Shown piece after piece: positions 1-28,923 of a stretch of 60,596 bases of DNA. Every line of letters begins with the position of its first letter. The stretch's first letter is position 1. A program made the position numbers and the translations under genes. Below the pieces are notes generated by a model. It did no database searches. It saw nothing but the letters and a program-made list of their open reading frames with translations, and was not told the DNA's origin. The DNA comes from Clostridia bacterium. GTDB lineage: Bacteria; Bacillota; Clostridia; Christensenellales; UBA1242. Location: contig JAFUJK010000083.1 of the NCBI GenBank assembly GCA_017468205.1, positions 1-60,596 of the forward strand, in the 5' to 3' direction.

Positions 1-100
1 CGGACGCCACACACGCACAAAACCCAGAAATAAAAAAAACGCGCCCGAGGAGAACCCCGAGCAACCAACCGACTACAAAGAGCCGGAGCGCAGCCAGCAA
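1..100 (-). other. Putative DGR variable region (adenine-depleted)
   Basis: Only 2 A in 100 nt of the coding strand, bounded by TGC TGG CTG CGC TCC GGC and GGC GTC CG. Confidence 0.5.
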
Positions 101-984
101 TATGATGTTGTACCGCTTCCTTCTATTGTTGTTGTATTAAATCCACGGTCAGCGGCTGTTAAGCCCCATAAACCGTTGTTTACTTGTGCCGTTGTAGACG
201 TAGTTTTTGGAGTTTTATTAAACACTTCTACACTACTTGGTATCCAAAAACTATCATTATATGGTGGATTTGATGTATTCCAGTTACTAGAATGTGTCCA
301 GCCCGTGTATACACCATTATAATCGTCTAGATTGTTATGGTGGTCGTAGTAACTTGTTGAATAAGTATGAACATCATCTGCTTGTGTTGTTTGCCAAGTT
401 GCATCTGCATTTTTTGGTGATTGGATAATACTACTAAAACTTTCTAATTTTCCGTTCAACTTTGTGTAAATATTGTTTGTTACATCGCGGAGTGTTGATT
501 TTGAGTAGTTGCTGTATGTATCATACGATGTGCCATTACCAAAACCTGTATTTTCTGTACCGCTGTTATTATAATATTCAACAACATAGTTTGTATTCAT
601 CCAAACCGTGAGATAACCATTCCATAGATATGTCGCCTGCCATAAAATCGGCTTTGACGTGTCCATTGAGCCAGTTGCGTCTACATAGTATCCCATTGGA
701 AAGATTATTGTGCTATCGCTTCCACTTGTACCACGTGAGGCTATGTTGTGCGCCGTGTATGTGCCTGTGTCGCTTGGATTATCCCAGTAACCAACTGCAT
801 CAAGAAATGCCTCCACAGCCGCAGGGTTTATATTTCCGTTAGTATTGTACAGATTTGATAAACTTGTGGTCGTCGTTGTGCTTGCGTTTGTATTCAAAAT
901 AACGTAAGCCCCCGTCCCCGCTAATAGCGAAAATCCTAGCACAATGCTGGCTATTATCACCGCCAGCCGTACTTTCTTTGTCAT
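73..984 (-). CDS. Membrane-anchored/secreted surface protein with DUF6273-like (CWLRSG) domain; putative DGR target, reading frame interrupted in its variable region
   Basis: N-terminal hydrophobic helix; motifs IIFPMG..WQATY..LTVWM, FWIPS, WGL, YCWLRSG shared with the paralog at 24436-26232; TAG three codons after WLRSG while GGC GTC CG (G-V-R) is still visible at 8-1 in a shifted frame. Confidence 0.7.
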   Translation of the reverse strand: MTKKVRLAVIIASIVLGFSLLAGTGAYVILNTNASTTTTTSLSNLYNTNGNINPAAVEAFLDAVGYWDNPSDTGTYTAHNIASRGTSGSDSTIIFPMGYYVDATGSMDTSKPILWQATYLWNGYLTVWMNTNYVVEYYNNSGTENTGFGNGTSYDTYSNYSKSTLRDVTNNIYTKLNGKLESFSSIIQSPKNADATWQTTQADDVHTYSTSYYDHHNNLDDYNGVYTGWTHSSNWNTSNPPYNDSFWIPSSVEVFNKTPKTTSTTAQVNNGLWGLTAADRGFNTTTIEGSGTTSYCWLRSGSL

Positions 985-1428: not shown

Positions 1429-2403
1429 TTACTTCTTATTTCTAGGATTATTCAGCAATTTGAACGAATCATACAAATCTTGACGGAAATTTGAGTGCAT
1501 TTTCACTGCTTTATCAATTGGTGTAGCGATTATCTTATCATCGCGCAAACCGATAGCGAAATTAAACTTATTTTTATCAATCAATTCTATCGCAGAAACG
1601 CCGTAGCGAATAGCAAGCATTCTATCCTTGACGGTTGGGCTTCCGCCTCGTTGCATATAACCGAGCGCAACCGCTCTACATTCGTGATTAAAATCGCGTT
1701 GAATTTCACGAGAAAGTTGAAAAATGTCATATTGTTTTTCAGCGACAACAATCGTTGGACTTCTATTTCCATAATTAAGTTGGTCTTGAATAAACCTATA
1801 TATATGTGCCTTATCTAGCGGGTCTTCGGGAACAGCCACAATATCAGCCTCACTAGCCATAGCGCTATATAAAGCTATGTTACCTCCGTGTCTTCCCATA
1901 CATTCAATCAAACAAATTCGTTCATTAGCCTGCATAGTTTGGCGGATATTATCAATCATATTTGTAGCATTGTTTACAGCGCTATCAAAACCAATTGAGT
2001 CCGAAGTAGAATGCACATCATTATCAATCGTTGCTGGAATTGCTATTACATTCACACCTAAATCCACAAGCGATTTTGCGCCCAAGTAACTTCCGTTACC
2101 GCCGATAACAACAAGCGCCTTTACTCCCAATTTATTAAGATTTTGCACAGCGATTTTCTTATATTCAATATCTAAAAACTGCTCACAGCGGGCAGAATAA
2201 ATCATACTGCCACCGAGATTGAAAATATTTTTGACGTCATCTTTCGTTATTGTAAAATAGTCGTTATCAATTATACCCTTATAAGCGCGACGAAATGCGA
2301 CACACTCGTAGCCATAGTTATAAGACATTTCCACAACCGATTTCAAGCAAGCATTCATACCCGGGGCATCGCCACCGCTTGTAATTACTGCTATTTTTTC
2401 CAT
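1429..2403 (-). CDS. pfkA: ATP-dependent 6-phosphofructokinase
   Basis: IAVITSGGDAPGMNA, IGGNGS, PATIDND, MGRHGG, GYMQRGG motifs. Confidence 0.95.
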   Translation of the reverse strand: MEKIAVITSGGDAPGMNACLKSVVEMSYNYGYECVAFRRAYKGIIDNDYFTITKDDVKNIFNLGGSMIYSARCEQFLDIEYKKIAVQNLNKLGVKALVVIGGNGSYLGAKSLVDLGVNVIAIPATIDNDVHSTSDSIGFDSAVNNATNMIDNIRQTMQANERICLIECMGRHGGNIALYSAMASEADIVAVPEDPLDKAHIYRFIQDQLNYGNRSPTIVVAEKQYDIFQLSREIQRDFNHECRAVALGYMQRGGSPTVKDRMLAIRYGVSAIELIDKNKFNFAIGLRDDKIIATPIDKAVKMHSNFRQDLYDSFKLLNNPRNKK

Positions 2404-2438
2404 ATATTACTCCTTTTTTTGTTAGGTTTTTAAAAGGC

Positions 2439-2590
2439 GAGATTACCACGTTGCCCTCACGGGCGCCTCGCAATGACAAGTAATTATATTTGCTGAGATT
2501 TCTCCACTCGTTGCACTCGGTCGAAATGACACGCTATTATTCACGCGCAGGCTGTCATTTCGAGTAAGCGTAACGCATCGAGAAATCTCA
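2439..2590. repeat. Cluster of three REP-like GAGAT...AATGAC palindromic repeats
   Basis: Copies at 2439-2477, 2495-2530 and inverted at 2554-2589; the last two pair as gagatttctc..tcgaaatgac / gtcatttcga..gagaaatctc. Confidence 0.75.
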
Positions 2591-2621
2591 ACATTCAAAG
2601 CTCTTTTTCCTTTAATATTTT

Positions 2622-5600
2622 TTAGGCGACAACCATATTTTCAGGTTCGATAAAGCCAAAAAGTTCATTTTGCATTGCTGTACTACAATCGACCTTAAAT
2701 GGAAGCATAAAAGCCTTGCCCTGTTTGCAACACTTGACAACGACCTGATGTTCCCCTGGATAACGGGACAAAATGCTTATCACATTTTCCTTAACATTAG
2801 TATCGGTCAAATCGAATTTTAAATACAATTTCAGCACTTTTTTAGGTTCTTCAATAATTTTTGGTGCATCATCTTTTGGGGCAGACTTTTTATCATCCCA
2901 AAGAATGACATCTTCAGGCAAAACTATTGGTCTATCGCCCTCGCGAATGCTCAATTTGCCGACAAAGGTCATCATTGAATCGACATGTAGAATATGTTTA
3001 AATTTCTCATACACTTTAGGGAAAACGAGGACTTCAAAGGTGCCGAACAAGTCTTCAACGGTTACAACAGCCATTTCCTTGTTGCCGACCTTTGTGTTCA
3101 TACGTTTTACGCCTGTGAGTATACCACCGCATTTGACTTGCTGACCGTCCTCAACTCCCTCGTAGACTGAAATTTCCTCATCACCATCGTCACTTTGCAC
3201 GGTAACAGGAATAAGCAAATTACTAGTTAAATTGTATTCCTTATACTTATCGCGATATTGGTCAAGAATATGCCCACTGACATACACTCCCATAACTTCT
3301 TTTTCAAATTTCAAACGTTGTTGTGTATCATATTCAGGGATATATGGATACTGAACAACATTGAATGTTTTGTCCTCTTTTAGGACATTGTCAAACAATG
3401 TAAGTTGCCCTTGACTTTGCGAGCGCCTATCGCTTGAAACGCGCTCAACAATTTGCTCGTAAACGGCCATCATTTGGCTACGAGGCACTCCAAAGCAATC
3501 GAATGCGCCTGACAAAATCATTGCTTCAAGGAAACGCTTATTGTGAGCTTGTCCGTCCATACGAGAAATAAAGTCTTGCAAACTTTTGAACTCGCCGTTT
3601 CTTTCGCGCTCGCGAACCAACTCTTCAACAAGAGCAACGCCTACATTTTTAAGTCCGCCGAGACCGTAGCGAACGACTTTATCGTCCTCAACACTGAAAT
3701 AAGCCTGACTTTTGTTGACATCTGGCGGTAAAATCTTGATATCGTGCTGGCGCGCGAGTTCCATATAGTGAGTAAGTTCATCACTTTTTGTGATGCGGTT
3801 ATTCATAATAGCGGAATAAAATTCGGTTATGTGATAAACTTTCATATAAGCGGTTTGATAAGTAATGAAAGCATATGCAGCGGCGTGCGCCTTGTTGAAT
3901 GCATAACTACCAAATTTTTCCATTTGGCTCCACAATTTTTCCGCATCGTCGAGTTTCATTCCACGTTTCAGAACTCCGTCAATGCTTTTCAGCCCTTCTG
4001 GGTCGACCCAACCATTGATAAATCTTTCCTTTTCGATTGGAAGTTTATCGGCGAGTTTCTTACCCATAATCTTACGAACACCATCAGCCTGACCCATTGT
4101 ATAGCCCGCAAGAACCTGACAAAGTTTCATAACCTGCTCTTGGTAAACCATAACACCATATGTTACGCCAAGCACGTCCTTCATTTTTGGGTCTGGATAG
4201 ATAACGGACTCTGGATTTTTACGATTTTTGATATATGTAGGTATTTCGTCCATAGGACCCGGACGATACATTGCAAGGATAACGATAATTTCCTCGATGT
4301 TGACTGGTTTCATATCCTTTGCGAAGTTGGAGATTCCGCCACTTTCAAGTTGGAAAACACCGTCATTATCGCCTGAACCAATCAACTTGTAAACATTTGG
4401 GTCTGCGTACGAGAAGTCGCGTGAATAGAAATCTATTTCCTCGCCTGTTCTCTTTTTAACCGTTTTTAGCATCAAGTCAAGGTCGGTCAAGGTAATCAGC
4501 CCCAAGAAGTCCATTTTCAAAAGTCCGAGATGCTCGGTTTCGTTTTTGTCAAATTGTGTTGTTACCATATCGCCGTTTTTAGCCATTGGAACGTGGTCGG
4601 AAATATCATCACAGCATATAACGACACCCGCAGCGTGGATACTTGTATTTCGAGGCATATTTTCGAGTTTAATCGCGGTATCAACAATTTTCTGAACAAG
4701 CAAATCACTCTCGTACATTGCTTTTAGTTCAGGAACGACATACTGCGCATCTTCGGGTTTTTTGCTAACGCCATACAACTTTTCAATTGCAGGAGATTTT
4801 GGCATTTTTGTTGGAAACAATTTTGTCATTTTGTCGACTTCGGAATAAGGCATTTTAAGCACGCGTGCGACATCTTTAATTGCCGCTTTTGCCGCCATTG
4901 TACCAAAAGTAATTATCTGACTTACATTTGGCTCGCCATATTTTTCGATTACGTACTGGATTGCATCTTCACGTTTTACAGGGCAGAAGTCGATGTCGAA
5001 GTCGGGCGGGCTGACGCGCTCTGGGTTTAGGAAACGCTCGAACCAAAGGTCATATTTAAGCGGGTCGATAAGTGTAATTCCGATGGCATAAGCCAAGATA
5101 CTCGCGGCACCACTACCACGCCCTGGCCCTACTGGGACGTCGTGGTCGCGCGACCAGTTGATAAAGTCCCAAACGACAAGATAGTAGTCGACATATCCAC
5201 TTTTAATAAGTGTGTTCATTTCGAACTCGGCGCGCTCTTGAATTTCGGGAGTTATTTCGCCATAACGTTTGATTAATCCTTCATTAACAATTTTCCAGAG
5301 ATAATCGACATTGTTCATACCATTTGGGGCAGTAAACTTTGGATAGAACTGGCTTTTAAAGTCAAAATCGTAGTTACACTTTTCAGCAATTTCGAGAGTA
5401 TTATCAATACATTCGGGGTGAGCGGCGAAAATTGCACGCATTTCTTCCTCTGTTTTGAGGTAAAACTGGTCGCCGTCCATACGCATACGGTCAGGGTCGT
5501 CGATTGTTTTTCCAGTCTGAATACAGAGCATAATGTCCTGCATTTCCGAGTCCTCTTTGTTTAGGTAATGGACGTCGTTTGTTGCAATCGTTTTTACCCC

Positions 5601-6182
5601 CAATGCGTCTGCAAGTTTAAACAAATCGGGTAAAATTTGGCGTTGTTCTTGAATTCCGTGGTCCTGAACTTCGATATAAAAATCCCCTTCGGCAAACATA
5701 TCTCTGAGTCGTGAGCCAAACTTTACAGCATCATCAAAGCGACCTTGCAAAAGCAGTCTAGGGATATCGCCAGCGAGGCACGCGGAACTACAAATCAGCC
5801 CCCCGCTATATTTTTCGAGTGTGTTATAGTCGATTCGAGGTTTGTAATAAAATCCCTTTGTCCACGCGATGCTGTTAAGCTTACACAAATTGTGATAGCC
5901 TTCCTCATTTTTCGCCAAAATTATCAAGTGTGCAGGGTTTGGCTTTCCCTGTTTATAATATAGGTCATCAACAACGTAAAACTCGGTACCGATGATTGGC
6001 TTAATTCCGTTTGCCACACAAGCCTCGTAAAATTTTACAGCGCCGTACATATTTCCGTGGTCAGTTATTGCACATGCGGGCGCACCGCGTTCCTTCAATA
6101 TTTTTGTCAATTTTTTAATTCGAGCCGCACCATCGAGCAGACTATATTCAGTATGCAAGTGCAAGTGTACAAACTTTTCCAT
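2622..6182 (-). CDS. dnaE: DNA polymerase III alpha subunit
   Basis: FVHLHLHTEYSLLDGA PHP domain, GPGRGSGAAS, PPDFDIDF, KMDFLGL, YAFNKAH. Confidence 0.97.
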   Translation of the reverse strand: MEKFVHLHLHTEYSLLDGAARIKKLTKILKERGAPACAITDHGNMYGAVKFYEACVANGIKPIIGTEFYVVDDLYYKQGKPNPAHLIILAKNEEGYHNLCKLNSIAWTKGFYYKPRIDYNTLEKYSGGLICSSACLAGDIPRLLLQGRFDDAVKFGSRLRDMFAEGDFYIEVQDHGIQEQRQILPDLFKLADALGVKTIATNDVHYLNKEDSEMQDIMLCIQTGKTIDDPDRMRMDGDQFYLKTEEEMRAIFAAHPECIDNTLEIAEKCNYDFDFKSQFYPKFTAPNGMNNVDYLWKIVNEGLIKRYGEITPEIQERAEFEMNTLIKSGYVDYYLVVWDFINWSRDHDVPVGPGRGSGAASILAYAIGITLIDPLKYDLWFERFLNPERVSPPDFDIDFCPVKREDAIQYVIEKYGEPNVSQIITFGTMAAKAAIKDVARVLKMPYSEVDKMTKLFPTKMPKSPAIEKLYGVSKKPEDAQYVVPELKAMYESDLLVQKIVDTAIKLENMPRNTSIHAAGVVICCDDISDHVPMAKNGDMVTTQFDKNETEHLGLLKMDFLGLITLTDLDLMLKTVKKRTGEEIDFYSRDFSYADPNVYKLIGSGDNDGVFQLESGGISNFAKDMKPVNIEEIIVILAMYRPGPMDEIPTYIKNRKNPESVIYPDPKMKDVLGVTYGVMVYQEQVMKLCQVLAGYTMGQADGVRKIMGKKLADKLPIEKERFINGWVDPEGLKSIDGVLKRGMKLDDAEKLWSQMEKFGSYAFNKAHAAAYAFITYQTAYMKVYHITEFYSAIMNNRITKSDELTHYMELARQHDIKILPPDVNKSQAYFSVEDDKVVRYGLGGLKNVGVALVEELVRERERNGEFKSLQDFISRMDGQAHNKRFLEAMILSGAFDCFGVPRSQMMAVYEQIVERVSSDRRSQSQGQLTLFDNVLKEDKTFNVVQYPYIPEYDTQQRLKFEKEVMGVYVSGHILDQYRDKYKEYNLTSNLLIPVTVQSDDGDEEISVYEGVEDGQQVKCGGILTGVKRMNTKVGNKEMAVVTVEDLFGTFEVLVFPKVYEKFKHILHVDSMMTFVGKLSIREGDRPIVLPEDVILWDDKKSAPKDDAPKIIEEPKKVLKLYLKFDLTDTNVKENVISILSRYPGEHQVVVKCCKQGKAFMLPFKVDCSTAMQNELFGFIEPENMVVA

Positions 6183-15168: not shown

Positions 15169-16515
15169 TTATACCCAATTTTGCATATCATACTTAATTA
15201 AACCAAAATTTTTGGTGCTTTCAGTAACTTTTAAATGTTCAGAAATATCAACCCCTGCCACTGCCAGAACTTCATTTCCCAAAGCCAAAACTGGAAGATA
15301 ATCACGAATACGTGCAGGAACTTTTTTATCATTTAAATAACTTTTTAATTTTCGGCTTCCACCGCCAAACTTTTCAATATAATCGCCTTCTTTACGAACA
15401 CGCCAAACTGCACCATTTGGAATTTGGTCAAGGTCAACAAGCAAAAATCCAGCTTGTAATTCTGGCGATTTTGCACGTTTAACACTTAATTTGCCATAAT
15501 CACCAAATTTTATAGTACCAATTTTAAAATCCCATTCTACATTTAATTCTACTTTTGGCTTTTTGTGAGTGATTGTAATATATTCATATTCTTTGTAAAC
15601 ATCGACATTATTAGGTAAGTTAATTTTTGCGCCATTCTCACCACTTTTTGCCAAATCGAGAATCATTATCAAATGTTTACGCTCAAAATTTTGAATTACA
15701 CCCAATTTTGCCAAGCAATCATCAAGCAATCTAAAAATATGCGAATTACCATACACAAAATACGTCAGAGGCACTTTCACCATATCATCATTATATAAAA
15801 CTGCATCAAAATTAATCATACTACGAATAACTTGGTCATCTTCCTTGCAGGTTTTACCAAAATTACACAATGTGGCATCTACATTTTGCCAAACTTTGCG
15901 TAATTCGGGCATAACAACATTTCTAATCATGTTGCGTGTAATTGTGTTGTCGCTATTAGTTTCATCTTCCAAATATTGAATATCATTTTCGTAAACATAG
16001 CGCATTAATTCATCTTTTGGCATATCAAGTAGTGGGCGCACGTAAAAATTATCACGAACATACTCCATACCACTCGCGCCTTTAATGCCACTACCGCGCA
16101 AAATATGCATAAGTATTGTTTCGGCTTGGTCGCGTTGATGATGAGCAAGACAAACATAATCAACAAGTCCGCGTTTTTTCAAACTTTCAAACACACCATA
16201 ACGCGTTTCCCTGCACGCTTCTTCAAGTCCCATACCCTTTTGTTTTGCAAGAATGCCCGCTTCTACGCGAAATTTGTAAAATCTAATACGATTTTCACGG
16301 CAATAGTCTTCAACAAAAATCGCTTCTGCCTCGTCAGCCTCGCGAGTGCCGTGGATAACATTAATCGCAACAACATCAATATCAAGTTTAAACTTGTTTG
16401 CGTTCAAGAAGTGCAAGAGAGCCATACTATCAGAGCCACCACTTACGCCAACACCAACAACACTGCCTGAACTAAAAAATTTGTTTTCAATAATAAAATC
16501 TAGAATTTTCTCCAT
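15169..16515 (-). CDS. tilS: tRNA(Ile)-lysidine synthase
   Basis: GVSGGSDSMALL PP-loop, AHHQRDQAET, RPLL, RNMIR; ATG 16515 follows GAGGTG. Confidence 0.94.
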   Translation of the reverse strand: MEKILDFIIENKFFSSGSVVGVGVSGGSDSMALLHFLNANKFKLDIDVVAINVIHGTREADEAEAIFVEDYCRENRIRFYKFRVEAGILAKQKGMGLEEACRETRYGVFESLKKRGLVDYVCLAHHQRDQAETILMHILRGSGIKGASGMEYVRDNFYVRPLLDMPKDELMRYVYENDIQYLEDETNSDNTITRNMIRNVVMPELRKVWQNVDATLCNFGKTCKEDDQVIRSMINFDAVLYNDDMVKVPLTYFVYGNSHIFRLLDDCLAKLGVIQNFERKHLIMILDLAKSGENGAKINLPNNVDVYKEYEYITITHKKPKVELNVEWDFKIGTIKFGDYGKLSVKRAKSPELQAGFLLVDLDQIPNGAVWRVRKEGDYIEKFGGGSRKLKSYLNDKKVPARIRDYLPVLALGNEVLAVAGVDISEHLKVTESTKNFGLIKYDMQNWV

Positions 16516-24435: not shown

Positions 24436-26374
24436 TTACGTCAACTTATCCGTATTATTTGTTTCAGTATTTACATTTGAACTTATTTGTGAAAAATTGG
24501 CAATTATAAGTTTTCCAAATGCTTGCTCTTTGGTTAGCTGCATGCTCAAACTTGTTCCGAACGAATTTCCATCGCTATCCGTCCAGCCGTCAAATTGATA
24601 ACCCGCGTATGCAACCGCAATGCACGTAATCGTGTCGCTTTCCTCACTTAAATCCGAGCCTGTTATTCTGGCTTCCCCGCCATTGGTGGCTTGAATGGCG
24701 ACGCCCTCAATACTTGTGCCCGCGCTATTTTTTAAAACTGGCTTTGTATTAATAAAAGTAAGATAAATACCAAAATCCGCACTGATGTAATCAATTTGAA
24801 GAACAAGCATATTGCCATTTTCATTGATTTTGTACTCAATGCTAGCCGAACTTCCCGAATTTTCAAGCAATCCCGTTCGCGTTTCAAAAACTTGCGTTTC
24901 TCCACTTGCAACCGAAATTGCGCTGAAATAATATCCGCTTGGCGCGGTCAAATAGTATGTAAGTGTGTAGTTTTGGTCGCGTGAGAAGTCGCTAGTAAAA
25001 GTTTGCGAGCCTGTGATAGTTGCAGTAAAATACTTTATGAAATATGCAGTATAAGTCTGCGCACTGCTCGCAGTTATCGTCAGAGGATTGCTCTCATATG
25101 TTCCCCCTCCGCTGTCCTGCCAGTATGCAAATATACTACCATTTATTGGATTGGCTGTTAATGAAACTAATGTGCCACTTTCATATGTTCCCCCTCCGCT
25201 TACTGAACCATAAGAAGAATTAGAAGTGTTTGCTGTGATTAATACTCCAGTTTTGAAATACGCCTTGCAAGTGATAGTCCCTGTTACCGCAAAAGAATAT
25301 GGGTTACTTTCCACACGAGTTGAGCCAATCATCCAGTAGTCAAATAGATATCCTGCATTTGGCGTTGCTATAATTGTTGTGATGGTGTTATATTTTATCG
25401 CCCCACCGCCACTTGTCGTACCATATGAGGAGTTGTTTGTTGAAAGCGTTACATTAAATTCAACACAACTAGCTAGACTATTCAATGAAATGTGAGCGGC
25501 AGGACGCACACCGCGACTAAAGAAAGTACTGCTGCGGGAAACGGAGCCAGAGGAGGATATTAGTAACGCGACGTCGTAGTCGCCAGATTCGCCAGAACGC
25601 AGCCAACAATAGTCTGTAGACATTTCCCTATCTGTGTCATCTAGCCCCCAAAAAGAGAAAGTTTCATAATAACTTGGAAGCCAGAATTTATCTGTAACTG
25701 TTGATAATACACCTAAACTACTAATATAGTCATCAGTGTATTGCGTATCTTGTGCTGTCTTATAGCTACTACTCATACTACATGGCGAAACGGTGATTGA
25801 GTTAAGTACTGGATAACTGCTCGCGCGAGTTGTGAAATAATTTTGCACTGTCGTGCGTATATCTGAACTACTATAGTCATTGTTTGAACTAGCAAATGTG
25901 GCAGTTGTGTAGTAATCACACATCCACACGGTAATAATGTCTGTGTTGTTTGGGTCGCGATACACCACTTGCCAAGCGCGACCAGCCATTGTAAAAACTA
26001 TCGGAGTTCCGCCGTCCAAAGTTCTCACTGTTCCAGTTTTCGAGCCCAATTTGCTAATTAAGGAATTATATACTGTTTCATTTACTATACTGCTTCCACT
26101 AGTGGATAATGTTCCAAGTGATGTGTAACTTTTTAATGCCGAAACGCCGTTTAAATCATTTAAAATCAAAAAAATGCTTCCGCCTGTTATAGCGATAAAA
26201 AGAAGGATTAAGGACAGAATTAGGGCAATCACTTTGCCTCTTTTTTCTTTATTTTTAGGGTTGTTTAAATTGTCTGAAAAGCCTTTATTTAAGCCATTTT
26301 CAGCAATTTTTTCGCTATTTAGCGCCCCCCCCCCCCTGCGGAGTTTTTGGGGTGGATAAGTGGTCTTTTTTCAT
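24436..26374 (-). CDS. Surface protein: TM anchor, DUF6273-like domain with putative DGR variable region, InlB-B-like repeats; 5' end frameshifted at a G12 tract
   Basis: GGAGG-N8-ATG at 26374; that frame stops after the G12 tract, main 598-aa ORF is 26232-24436; repeats ATPNAGYLFDYW, ANPINGSIFAYW, AYAGYQFDGW. Confidence 0.75.
25498..25605 (-). other. Putative DGR variable region
   Basis: WLRSG-26 codons-GVRPA; 21 of 26 codons end in C/T (14 in C), none encodes Asn, as expected for randomised AAY codons. Confidence 0.65.
26325..26336 (-). repeat. G12 homopolymer (candidate phase-variation tract)
   Basis: 12 C on the plus strand, inside the 5' coding region; G11 or G14 joins ATG 26374 to the main ORF. 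Confidence 0.75.
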
Positions 26375-26729: not shown

Positions 26730-27074
26730 TTACAGACCAAGACTAATTGCAAGGGCATCGTCTATATTTTTTAGTGTCCTTGCATCAGTATATCCAATTT
26801 TATCCAGCAAGCGCGCCTTATCCAATGTGCGAATTTGCTCCAATAATACAACACTATCTTTTTCAAGTCCAAAACAACTTGCGCTTAATTCAATATGTGT
26901 AGGCAATTTGGCCTTATTGATTTTACTTGTTATAGCAGCAACAATAACGGTTGGGCTGTAACGATTGCCGACATCATTTTGCACAATCAAAACGGGGCGC
27001 ACACCGCCCTGCTCACTCCCGACAACAGGCGAGAGATTAGCATAATAAATATCACCACGTTTGATTGTGTCCAA
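26730..27074 (-). CDS. mazF: PemK/MazF (NdoA/EndoA-type) mRNA interferase toxin
   Basis: [42 protein letters not shown]; conserved position downstream of acpS. Confidence 0.93.
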
Positions 27075-27075
27075 C

Positions 27076-27255
27076 TTATTGCTCCTTTATCCAATTTTCG
27101 TAGCGATCCAAATCGCAACCAGCGACACCCCAAATTTCACGTTCAGAAAAGCCAACGAAATCACCAAAATCGTTTTTTTCCATTATATGCGAACTAAAAT
27201 GAGATTTGTGAGAGAGAGCTGATAGTTCTGCTACATATTTTTCAAAGTCTTTCAT
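27076..27255 (-). CDS. Putative minimal MazE/NdoAI-like antitoxin (59 aa, absent from the ORF track)
   Basis: [59 protein letters not shown]; stop 1 nt before the mazF TTG; contains the mazF RBS. Confidence 0.6.
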
Positions 27256-27301
27256 AATAATTTATCCCTTTTAACACTGCAAATATACCTAAAAAACAAA
27301 A

Positions 27302-27327
27302 AATATAGGAAGGTTCTTTCCTATATT
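27302..27327. terminator. Hairpin/terminator downstream of acpS
   Basis: aatataggaa..ttcctatatt inverted repeat, T-run on the minus strand. Confidence 0.55.
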
Positions 27328-27351
27328 CTGTATTTTGTCATAAAATATACA

Positions 27352-27723
27352 TCATTTTGCAATGCAAATTGCAACCGCATTATCATGTGTATGCGAAATG
27401 CTAATATCCATTTCCTTAATTTTCAGGCTTTGAGCAATCTCTTTGGTAACGCCACTAAAAGAAACAACGGGTTTTCCTAATTCGTTAGGCAGTATTTCAA
27501 TTTCCGTCCACTTAACTCCTTTATCAATTCCAGTTCCCAACATTTTTACAACGGCTTCTTTTCCTGCGAACTTTCCCGCAATTCGTTCAGCTCTTGCCTG
27601 TTGATTACTTAATTGTTCGATATGCTCGCGCTCTTTTTTTGTAAAAACACGAGAAAGGAACGCAACATTTTCGCATTTATCAAAAAATCTTGATACTTCC
27701 ACCATATCAATACCAACTTTCAC
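27352..27723 (-). CDS. acpS: Holo-ACP synthase
   Basis: VGIDMVEVSR, KFAGKEAVVK, SISH. Confidence 0.93.
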   Translation of the reverse strand: MKVGIDMVEVSRFFDKCENVAFLSRVFTKKEREHIEQLSNQQARAERIAGKFAGKEAVVKMLGTGIDKGVKWTEIEILPNELGKPVVSFSGVTKEIAQSLKIKEMDISISHTHDNAVAICIAK

Positions 27724-28333
27724 AATCGCCCTCCTTGATTTTCGACATTGCAGAACTTATTTCACTCCAAGAAAATCCTTTCCCAGCCAAATATCTACAC
27801 ATTTTATCTAAATTTTCACGCGTTCGCTCCTTATTTTTCATATATTTTAAAGCAATAGCAAGAACAGCATCTTCCTGACTACCCGCATTTTCTAAAATAT
27901 TGTCAATTATTTCTCTATCTATACCGCGCATTTCAAGATTAAATTTAATTTTGCGCGTGCCATAGCGGGAAATATTGCTATTCACATACATTTCCGCATA
28001 CAATTCATCATTTAAGAACTTATATTCAAGCATTTTATCAATAATCGCACCAATAACACGAGGCAAATAACCTTTATCTTTTAGATATTCTCGCATTTGT
28101 CGCTTTGTTTTTAAATTTTTTGAAACCAATTCAACAGCGCGCTCAAACCCGCTTGAAACCTCACTTTCAAAAGTAATATCTTCCAGTTCTGTTTTTGAAA
28201 TTTCATTGCCGACTTTTAATTTGTTTTTATAAGTTGTGAAAGCATCTAATGTACAAACAAATTCATTATCTATATAAATATGTTGACGTTTATTCTTCCC
28301 TTTTGCCTCTTTTATGTCTGTTATTATCCCCAT
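27707..28333 (-). CDS. recX: RecX family regulator
   Basis: LNDELYAEMYV, GTRKIKFNLEMRGI, RYLAGKGF. Confidence 0.85.
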   Translation of the reverse strand: MGIITDIKEAKGKNKRQHIYIDNEFVCTLDAFTTYKNKLKVGNEISKTELEDITFESEVSSGFERAVELVSKNLKTKRQMREYLKDKGYLPRVIGAIIDKMLEYKFLNDELYAEMYVNSNISRYGTRKIKFNLEMRGIDREIIDNILENAGSQEDAVLAIALKYMKNKERTRENLDKMCRYLAGKGFSWSEISSAMSKIKEGDCESWY

Positions 28334-28923
28334 TACTCGCCCTCATAATATTCAAAAATATCGCCTATAAAAGTTGAGTTTTCTATCAATTCATCACTAC
28401 TAGCGACAACTTTTAAGGTTGCGCCATTATCAAAATTAGTGTCAATAACTTTTATTTTTCGCCCCTTAATATTATTTATAAAAGGCTGATAATCCTTATA
28501 ATCAAGTTCAACCTCATAAATCTTTGAACTCAACCATTCGACAATTTTCGCATTTTCTATTGTATCGACCGCGCTACCAGAATAGGCTCGCAAAAGGCCA
28601 CCTGCACCAAGTTTTACACCTCCAAAATAGCGAACCACTGCAATAACCACATTCACAAGCCCTTTCTTTTCTATTATATTTAGAATAGGCTTTCCTGCTG
28701 TGCCTGACGGCTCGCCATCATCGCTTAAACGTGCCGAATTTCTCAATTTATAGGCAAAACAAATATGTCTTGCATCCTTATATTTCTCGCGCAATTCATT
28801 CAAAAAACTTTCCGCTTCGTCCCCACTCTCAACAAACTTCGCAAAACCCAAAAAGCGAGATTTGTTAATAACAATCTCGCTTGTGTAAATTTCATCTTTT
28901 TTTATAGAAAGAAAACTTTCCAT
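28333..28923 (-). CDS. YigZ/IMPACT family protein
   Basis: KSRF, SDDGEPSGTAG, VVRYFGGVKLGAGGL. Confidence 0.92.
   Translation of the reverse strand: MESFLSIKKDEIYTSEIVINKSRFLGFAKFVESGDEAESFLNELREKYKDARHICFAYKLRNSARLSDDGEPSGTAGKPILNIIEKKGLVNVVIAVVRYFGGVKLGAGGLLRAYSGSAVDTIENAKIVEWLSSKIYEVELDYKDYQPFINNIKGRKIKVIDTNFDNGATLKVVASSDELIENSTFIGDIFEYYEGE

Follow-up and report, generated by a model that had tools for sequence, protein, structure and literature searches.

A second, adenine-poor template may write OFF alleles into targets of a diversity-generating retroelement in a Clostridia genome

The prototype of diversity-generating retroelements (DGRs) is the mtd-avd-TR-brt system of Bordetella phage BPP-1. 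The reverse transcriptases (RTs) of these elements err essentially only at template adenines and, to our knowledge, DGRs are known only as diversifiers, their sole known output being randomisation at the adenines of a template repeat (TR). According to a recent study, a reconstituted DGR transfers non-adenine markers faithfully, and the base located 3' of a template adenine governs misincorporation by bRT (PMC12875486). Guo et al. (2011) present GC-rich stems with 5'-GRNA loops, downstream of variable regions (VRs), as a target recognition element with a more than 1000-fold effect on BPP-1 tropism switching (PMC3240598). Here we describe a locus where such an element may have a further use. 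It opens a stretch of 60,596 nucleotides (hereafter the window) from a Clostridia bacterium (GenBank assembly GCA_017468205.1, contig JAFUJK010000083.1), in which the VR slot of a surface-protein gene is filled by a tract almost devoid of adenine. We propose, with a probability of about 0.55 for the whole chain of events, writing by the RT included, that this tract is an OFF allele of a DGR target, templated by a second, adenine-poor template, TR2, located on contig C11. The ordinary, AAC-rich template, TR1, lies on contig C90.

The genome of the window, G000, is a 1.23-Mb assembly of 92 contigs, 94.6% complete, with 36.4% G+C and about 32% A. The window (G000:C76:1-60596) starts at the first base of contig C76, so that position 1 is indeed a contig end, a possibility raised in an earlier note on the letters of this DNA. 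Over positions 1-100 the + strand counts A41 C35 G22 T2, and the coding strand, which is the minus strand, has two adenines, at window 31 and 74, in line with the count of that note. Because normal VRs of G000 retain about 46% of 32 template adenines, two in 100 nucleotides is far under the level of a diversified VR. Read along the minus strand, TTGCTGGCTGCGCTCCGGC is followed by a 73-nt interior, then by GGCGTCCG. Counted from after the CWLRSG glycine codon up to the GVRP GGC, this interior amounts to 78 nt in TR1 and in 14 normal VRs; the slot is thus 5 nt short, as had been seen earlier with values of 76 and 81 nt that included one GGC. The 5' homology block TTGCTGGCTGCGCTCCGGC(T), at 81..100, encodes CWLRSG and is common to TR1, TR2 and the VRs. 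Two codons past CWLRSG comes an in-frame TAG (73..75), then a terminator-like hairpin, UGCUCGGGG-UUCU-CCUCGGGCG (42..63), with nine pairs, six of them G-C, the rest G-U and none A-U. A run of eight T, in the place of a terminator U-tract, lies 3' of it (32..39), and the start of a 3' homology block common to TRs and VRs, GGCGTCCG(TCCTGCCGCT), which resembles an initiation of mutagenic homing (IMH) site, occupies 1..8. The gene so truncated (73..984, minus strand) codes for 303 aa, terminating in YCWLRSGSL before the TAG at 75-73. It represents the N-terminal half of a surface-protein paralog diversified by the DGR and has a membrane anchor at its N terminus. The in-frame TAG leaves the allele, as written, without function, one of the two options that the earlier note had offered. 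The closest full-length relatives of this half are 80-82% identical and 700-786 aa long; Pfam and NCBIfam searches with it gave no family match. For comparison with the ON state, the window holds an intact 598-aa paralog (24436..26232, minus strand), the one against which the earlier note had measured the tract, with a normal diversified VR (about 25513-25605) and C-terminal InlB B-repeat domains (Pfam PF18998, E 6.8e-27).

A scan of the whole of G000 with the pattern TGGCTGCGCTCCGGC, allowing up to three mismatches, returned 30 places. Three are unrelated, 22 are diversified VRs located at CWLRSG...GVRPA in surface-protein paralogs, and one is the non-coding TR1 (C90, about 640-735, minus strand). 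The others hold the tract: a non-coding copy, TR2 (C11:15745-15844), and three VR slots, at window 1-100, at the end of contig C37 and on contig C64 (3274-3376). The window copy is identical to its three counterparts at 100 of 100 positions, TR2 identity beginning exactly at window 100; the full common module has 110 nt, of which the window copy loses the 3' end at the contig end. This identity decides against the origin first proposed, in which a heavily adenine-mutagenised VR, or a blurred consensus of many variants, accounted for the missing adenines. To be sure, the DGR family is an active one, and the earlier note was right in placing the tract in one of its VR slots. However, it is the same sequence as a non-coding template copy and two other slots, its non-adenine positions mismatch TR1, and it is conserved across species. 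Furthermore, in Logan k=31 contigs of four runs (X1 and X2 of study P1, X3 and X4 of study P2), which provide the junction and variant evidence used here and may conceal rare variants, positions 1-100 show no variant except a T8/T9 length difference. We give mutagenesis or blurring next to no credence, and hypervariability of this VR is an unlikely reason for the break in the assembly; most likely the contig ends at position 1 because of repeats, namely the 110-nt module and the VR flanks.

G000 holds a genuine DGR by every system-level test. Contig C82 codes for a 390-aa RT (27299-28468; RVT_1, 53.7 bits), with its start overlapped by a bAvd-like open reading frame (26821-27315) that scores 55 bits with PF22296, above the cut-off of 40 (with NCBIfam DivGenRetAVD it reaches 41.3 bits, under the cut-off of 80). 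The best match of the RT among solved structures is 8ub7, a 328-aa reverse transcriptase (E 2e-29) which we take to be the bRT of BPP-1, and the IGNQTSQ motif seen at C82 is presumably a DGR hallmark. Between TR1 and the 14 VRs of the same length, 243 of 448 adenine positions have changed, against 29 of 644 other positions, and adenine-biased TR/VR changes are also found in two relatives of the same genus, G002 and G012. The AAC-rich non-coding template and the DGR-type RT that the earlier note expected side by side thus both exist, though apart, neither template being near the Avd/RT pair of C82. Both are stand-alone units of about 450-480 nt (TR1 at C90, about 360-850, minus strand; TR2 at C11, about 15640-16090), and G012 has three stand-alone template cassettes. 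The gene beside the TR1 cassette displays a run of 11 G/C within its first codons (C90:1-120). A second RT is encoded at C67:9462-10835 (minus strand); it is of the Drt2 antiviral type (PADLOC E 5.8e-135; NCBIfam 377.7 bits for a cut-off of 390) and, as a defence RT, was set aside as a candidate copier.

By its anatomy TR2 is a template cassette. It is non-coding, between an open reading frame and an ftsH-like gene, and continues with GCCGCTTCACTCC, a TR-specific 3' flank present in all seven TR cassettes of G000, G002 and G012 and missing from the VR flanks that were displayed, the VRs continuing with GCCGCTCACATCTC where TR1 and TR2 have GCCGCTTCACTCC. An invariant GAGATGAAGGG box follows 58-87 nt further on in the seven cassettes, surrounded by hairpins with compensatory changes at 13 of 19 predicted pairs, and both TR1 and TR2 are bracketed by a promoter-like site, about 80-110 nt ahead of the template, and a terminator-like site, 220-250 nt behind it. 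TR2 is therefore a paralog of the ordinary TR1 with the anatomy of a template, yet it is no diversifying template, having 2 A in its 73-nt interior where TR1 has 32 A in 78 nt. It is not simply TR1 with the adenines replaced, as the non-adenine positions mismatch, only CTCCTCGGGC is common and the interior is 5 nt shorter; neither is it an inverted copy of TR1, since by eye CTCCTCGGGC has the same orientation in both. A search of the TR2 locus against Rfam returned one sub-threshold match to a long non-coding RNA and nothing relevant. In the relatives G006 and G014 the genes that flank TR2 are about 160-170 nt apart, so that the cassette is an insertion of this lineage. Two explanations, which do not exclude each other, might account for its lack of adenine. 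Selection could favour faithful copying. Alternatively, an erasing ratchet could be at work, identical VR copies reconverting TR2 by recombination and thereby fixing the A-to-N changes made during homing.

The module is conserved within a narrow group. Among 41 relatives searched with the TR2 locus it is found in G001, G002 and G012, all of the same genus as G000, and an exact-pattern scan of 185,579 species genomes gave eight loci, every one of them in these three metagenome-assembled genomes (MAGs), which were built by at least two assembly pipelines. G002 and G012 have one TR2-type cassette each, that of G002 being syntenic, in front of ftsH, along with three to four copies in VR slots in the former and two in the latter; G001 has three such copies, TR2 and the RT not being found in this genome, which is 75% complete. 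The copies of one genome are identical, save for G001, with a T8/T9 difference as well as a single change in a flank, and G012, with one A-to-G change; between species they are 83-91% identical. The 5' part, with stop, hairpin and T run, is 78-92% identical between species, the 3' part 42-67%, and A makes up 3 of the 68 letters in the 18 variable columns of the latter, a poverty in adenine that, together with fast drift, fits an ongoing erasing ratchet. An orthologous RT, 79-85% identical, occurs among the relatives in G002 and G012 only, while six other members of the genus have an RT 44-48% identical and no module. With all this, we have little doubt that the tract copies a template module which is conserved and poor in adenine.

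In every copy that covers this part, in the four species, TAG stands after CWLRSG-S-L/R. An alternative genetic code is ruled out, as TAG terminates 79 of the 360 long open frames of G000. The hairpin, GCUCGGGG-UUCU-CCUCGGGC, is made of G-C and G-U pairs (one A-U for a G-U in G002) and followed by T7 to T9, and it appears in the centroid fold of all four species; with a nine-pair stem and a 4-nt loop ahead of CGTTTTTTTT, the sequence resembles that of an intrinsic terminator. One could imagine that ribosomes cope with this arrangement in the manner of T4 gene 60, leaping over the module, with take-off at the CWLRSG GGC and landing at that of GVRP, and making a protein without variable loops. 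GGC codons do flank the gap in G000, G001 and G002, with a stop and a hairpin after the first of them; a variable gap length would be immaterial to bypassing, and the downstream frame is constrained. By contrast, GGC and even in-frame GGN codons are missing from the landing site of G012, the stop comes two codons past the Gly rather than immediately after it, and the TR/VR homology blocks by themselves account for the flanking GGC codons. Without a matching landing codon in G012, and with a displaced stop, the arrangement departs from programmed bypass, and we find such recoding extremely unlikely.

The proposed route by which TR2 would silence a gene is as follows. The Avd/RT pair of C82 would reverse-transcribe TR2 RNA, and the cDNA would replace a VR via the same 5' and 3' homology blocks as those used by TR1. 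Since DGR RTs err essentially only at adenines, a template that has one to four of them would be copied nearly letter for letter. The copied TAG would then truncate translation, and the hairpin with its T run would very probably truncate transcription, creating an OFF allele. As both homology blocks survive, the gene could be turned ON again by later homing from TR1, with a newly diversified VR. That the TAG stays unchanged is compatible with copying by the RT, because its A precedes G, a context rarely changed by this DGR. In 27 normal VRs of three genomes (G000, G002 and G012), 11 of the 61 adenines before G are altered, without exception to G, eight of them at a single site of G002 (TCAGGC in TR1, TCGGGC in all eight VRs used), against 46-63% for adenine before A, C or T (54% before T). 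The adenines of all module copies differ from the template in 2 of 10 cases before T and in 0 of 13 before G. The three tract copies of G000 show no difference from TR2, with only two adenines available; the sole template-versus-copy substitution is in G012, where TR2 reads GTTATTG and both VR copies read GTTGTTG, a change at a template adenine.

Alternatively, gene conversion of RecA type involving the C11 copy and the VR slots could homogenise the copies with no contribution of the RT. Perfect identity over 110 nt is a usable substrate for recombination, and the few changes at template adenines just listed fit this explanation. However, the identity between the tract and the C64 copy ends where TR/VR homology ends, the gene sequences upstream of module copies differ right up to the homology boundary, and the blocks in common at the two borders have only 19 and 18 nt. 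The 3' point of divergence, off the contig end for the window, is visible in the C64 sister copy just past the IMH-like block, so that the tract shares both homology blocks with its template and diverges where a VR should. In addition, the C11 copy has the entire anatomy of a TR cassette, the module co-occurs with one RT clade, and the only substitution is A to G at a template adenine. Recombination without RT is therefore quite unlikely in our eyes, and TR2 anatomy, matching borders, co-occurrence with the RT clade and that lone substitution make it somewhat probable that the DGR RT writes the module.

The genes that receive the module are not a random sample of DGR targets. In all nine module loci with known downstream sequence (C64 of G000; C1, C3 and C17 of G001; C4, C2 and C40 of G002; C109 and C142 of G012) there is a box, CCGCGAGCnTGGCGAGCG, which encodes ...ISASLAS..., and it is found in none of 38 normal-VR loci (21 of G000, 9 of G002 and 8 of G012). 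This box is predicted to pair with the IMH-like end of the VR through 13 invariant pairs. A variable GC-rich hairpin precedes it and a second hairpin, of 6 bp and capped by a GATA or GAGA loop, follows it, with compensatory changes at three pairs; by comparison, a stretch of 150 nt contains a perfect GC-rich hairpin at only 1 of 37 normal loci. Since their GRNA-loop hairpins resemble the target element of Guo et al., the module loci may be efficient homing sites of this DGR.

The interrupted genes, to judge by their frames, are not decaying, both halves being intact and constrained. Upstream frames of module loci are open over 305-380 codons, and downstream frames, counted from GVRP, over 386-429 codons in each of the seven loci with enough sequence (an eighth leaves its contig at codon 195). 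The C64 and C1 downstream halves of G000 differ by 22 synonymous and 16 non-synonymous changes in 144 codons, a ratio of non-synonymous to synonymous substitution rates (dN/dS) of 0.22; other less saturated pairs give 0.21-0.40. Separate translation of the downstream half was considered and rejected, as C64 has no in-frame start in the first 105 codons after GVRP; its other two frames are stop-filled. Public data include full-length ON forms of this subfamily, P0005 (728 aa) and P0006 (580 aa), in which GYNISASLASGATDRAQ comes after a normal VR. In their C-terminal parts they share 84% identity with the downstream half at C3 of G001, and in its N-terminal part P0005 shares 61% with the upstream half of that locus. 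Both come from relatives, of a different strain from the module genomes. They were found by a search for proteins of near length; the C64 downstream half, when used to look for longer proteins, retrieved only normal-type paralogs.

Several observations weigh against an RT-written OFF allele, or against parts of this account. We infer the transfer from TR2 to VRs from anatomy alone. Adenine before T is changed in those 2 of 10 cases in module copies against 54% in normal VRs (binomial probability about 0.03), and module copies are not independent, so that the two changes may be one event. With the hairpin inside TR2, the TR2 RNA should be shortened before its 3' priming element, and read-through has to be assumed. 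Stems of at least nine pairs with a T tail also arise in 3-5% of composition-matched shuffles, and for this reason the terminator call rests mainly on conservation. The length of the module creates frame offsets of 1, 2 or 0 among copies, which rules out a designed frameshift and makes the shift incidental. Patterns of the hairpin and of the stop region had no match in Joint Genome Institute (JGI) metagenome contigs outside these genomes. No locus of the hairpin and box subfamily is ON in the four species genomes and, the module being confined to this one subfamily, it does not behave as a simple stochastic switch acting on any target. Finally, at the very locus of the window, C76, C37 and a third gene (P0008, continuing into C24 with a normal VR) have their last 73-158 nt in common, and no listed Logan contig spans unique sequence beyond window 158 into the module.

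These last two points raise the question of assembly: the module might be real at C11 and C64 and have been joined to the end of C76 through the 158 nt common with paralogs. C76 and C37 have their last base and final 158 nt in common, C24 opens with 73 of these nucleotides before passing into a normal VR, and P0008, the full-length form of the third gene (99.8% identity with the C24 frame along 460 aa), assigns C24 to a further N-terminal half. As no listed contig joins window positions past 158 to positions under 80, the presence of the module on this particular N-terminal half rests on the MAG assembler and on an estimate of copy number. That estimate comes from X1 and X2, in which the module is a separate unitig with a depth of 34.9 and 33.2, neighbouring single-copy contigs having 8.9 and 6.3. 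The ratios, about 3.9x and 5.3x, indicate about four to five copies per genome, in agreement with TR2 plus at least three VR copies. The loose ends of this unitig lead to the C11 context at position 100 and to normal VRs of C24 and C41 type at 81 and 82. Contigs of X3 and X4, moreover, cover window 1-110 without mismatch, extend 336 and 70 nt past position 1, and join the module to a TATGATGTTG context found only in this paralog group (X4 having T9 in place of T8). The best-holding run may be the source sample of the MAG and hence non-independent support. Contig C1 of G000 also begins 231 nt past the VR end of a second module-type locus, inside a downstream region that needs an upstream partner, and is a candidate continuation of C76 or C37. 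An assembly artefact at this locus is accordingly very unlikely. In G002, apparent ON/OFF pairs of a same locus (C4 and C15, C2 and C32) were discarded, as they have only a 77-nt graph overlap in common and differ downstream, being separate loci, and the Logan contigs revealed no ON/OFF pair within one population. In G000, paralogs that are only 76% identical upstream are perfectly identical over the last 58 nt before TR homology (C76 1-158, the end of C37, C24 1-73), which suggests either conversion tracts that exceed the template in length or common edges of the assembly graph.

A template that once diversified could also simply have decayed. TR2 would then be a degenerate paralog of TR1, a dead sequence still copied by the DGR into its most efficient targets, as a harmful or neutral by-product. 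The fast drift of the 3' part (42-67%) and a module length that does not keep the frame are what one would expect of it, and every hairpin-subfamily locus in the four species genomes is affected, as a poisoned template would have it. By contrast, TR2 retains all cis elements of a working cassette in three species, the TAG, the hairpin and the T run are far better conserved than the remainder, the target halves are open and constrained with the subfamily ON in relatives, and a purely harmful template should vanish quickly. We see decay as rather unlikely, and keep the TR2-templated OFF allele as the preferred account. That OFF alleles belong to an adaptive, reversible switch is a further step, which we take only tentatively.

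At the locus of the window, the target gene is flanked, by eye, by a 6-phosphofructokinase-like open reading frame (1429-2403, minus strand) and by the alpha subunit of a DnaE-type polymerase III (2622-6182, minus strand), and looks chromosomal rather than phage-like. An intergenic element with the motifs CGCAATGACAAG and GAGATTTCTC is repeated beside surface-protein genes, at window 2420-2600 and, on C64, just past the stop of the target gene. Gene callers have included its translation in the N-termini of some database proteins (...CHCEE...AISPL..., in P0001 and P0008).

Set beside canonical DGRs, the system of G000 has much that is familiar: Avd and RT, TR/VR changes concentrated at adenines, many CLec-type CWLRSG...GVRP targets, a shared GC-rich 3' block with TR- and VR-specific continuations, and a structured RNA element 3' of the TR. 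It departs from them in having a second template with one to four adenines instead of about 32, whose copies do not vary and bring with them a stop and a terminator-like hairpin, and in its stand-alone templates, on contigs other than that of the RT. The hairpins of module loci resemble the target hairpin of Guo et al. (PMC3240598) in their GC-rich stem and 4-nt GATA or GAGA loop, which fits 5'-GRNA. They differ from it in lying about 75 nt past the VR end, rather than 4-34 bp, and in being preceded by a second, variable hairpin and an IMH-pairing box; in addition, the 38 normal targets, without the box, and 36 of 37 without a perfect GC-rich hairpin, are diversified all the same. The faithful writing of non-adenine positions is common with engineered DGRs (PMC12875486), a class to which DGRec (preprint 10.1101/2025.03.24.644984) also belongs. 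Those are laboratory constructs, however, whereas in G000 the faithful mode appears to be used naturally, for installing a fixed cassette. Contingency loci and phase variation come to mind as well, since members of a surface-protein family would be switched off with their genes undestroyed and both halves intact, yet the state would be set by retrohoming from either of two templates, not by slippage or inversion. In a full-text literature search, mostly without subscription journals, we met no natural adenine-free DGR template and no DGR-written terminator. New, then, are the template-type master copy, the conserved cis elements, concerted evolution in four species, the hairpin-marked target subfamily and the adenine-context effect.

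Taken together, this suggests, as a possibility that we put forward with reserve, a two-template DGR: the adenine-rich TR1 would randomise the ligand-binding loops of about 25 surface proteins, and TR2, an adenine-free eraser, would reversibly silence the hairpin-marked subset. A hairpin made of G-C and G-U pairs, and a stop codon with its A in a poorly mutated context, suit faithful copying. If this is true, DGR machinery also serves exact sequence replacement, silencing surface proteins while leaving them ready for re-activation with new specificity; this would be a new mechanism of phase variation and a natural, programmed, non-mutagenic form of RT-mediated genome editing. It would explain adenine-free 'broken' VRs in MAGs and offer a natural design rule for DGR-based editing, namely no A, or A only before G. 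With both kinds of targets in one genome, with and without hairpin and box, the choice of targets by DGRs becomes testable there.

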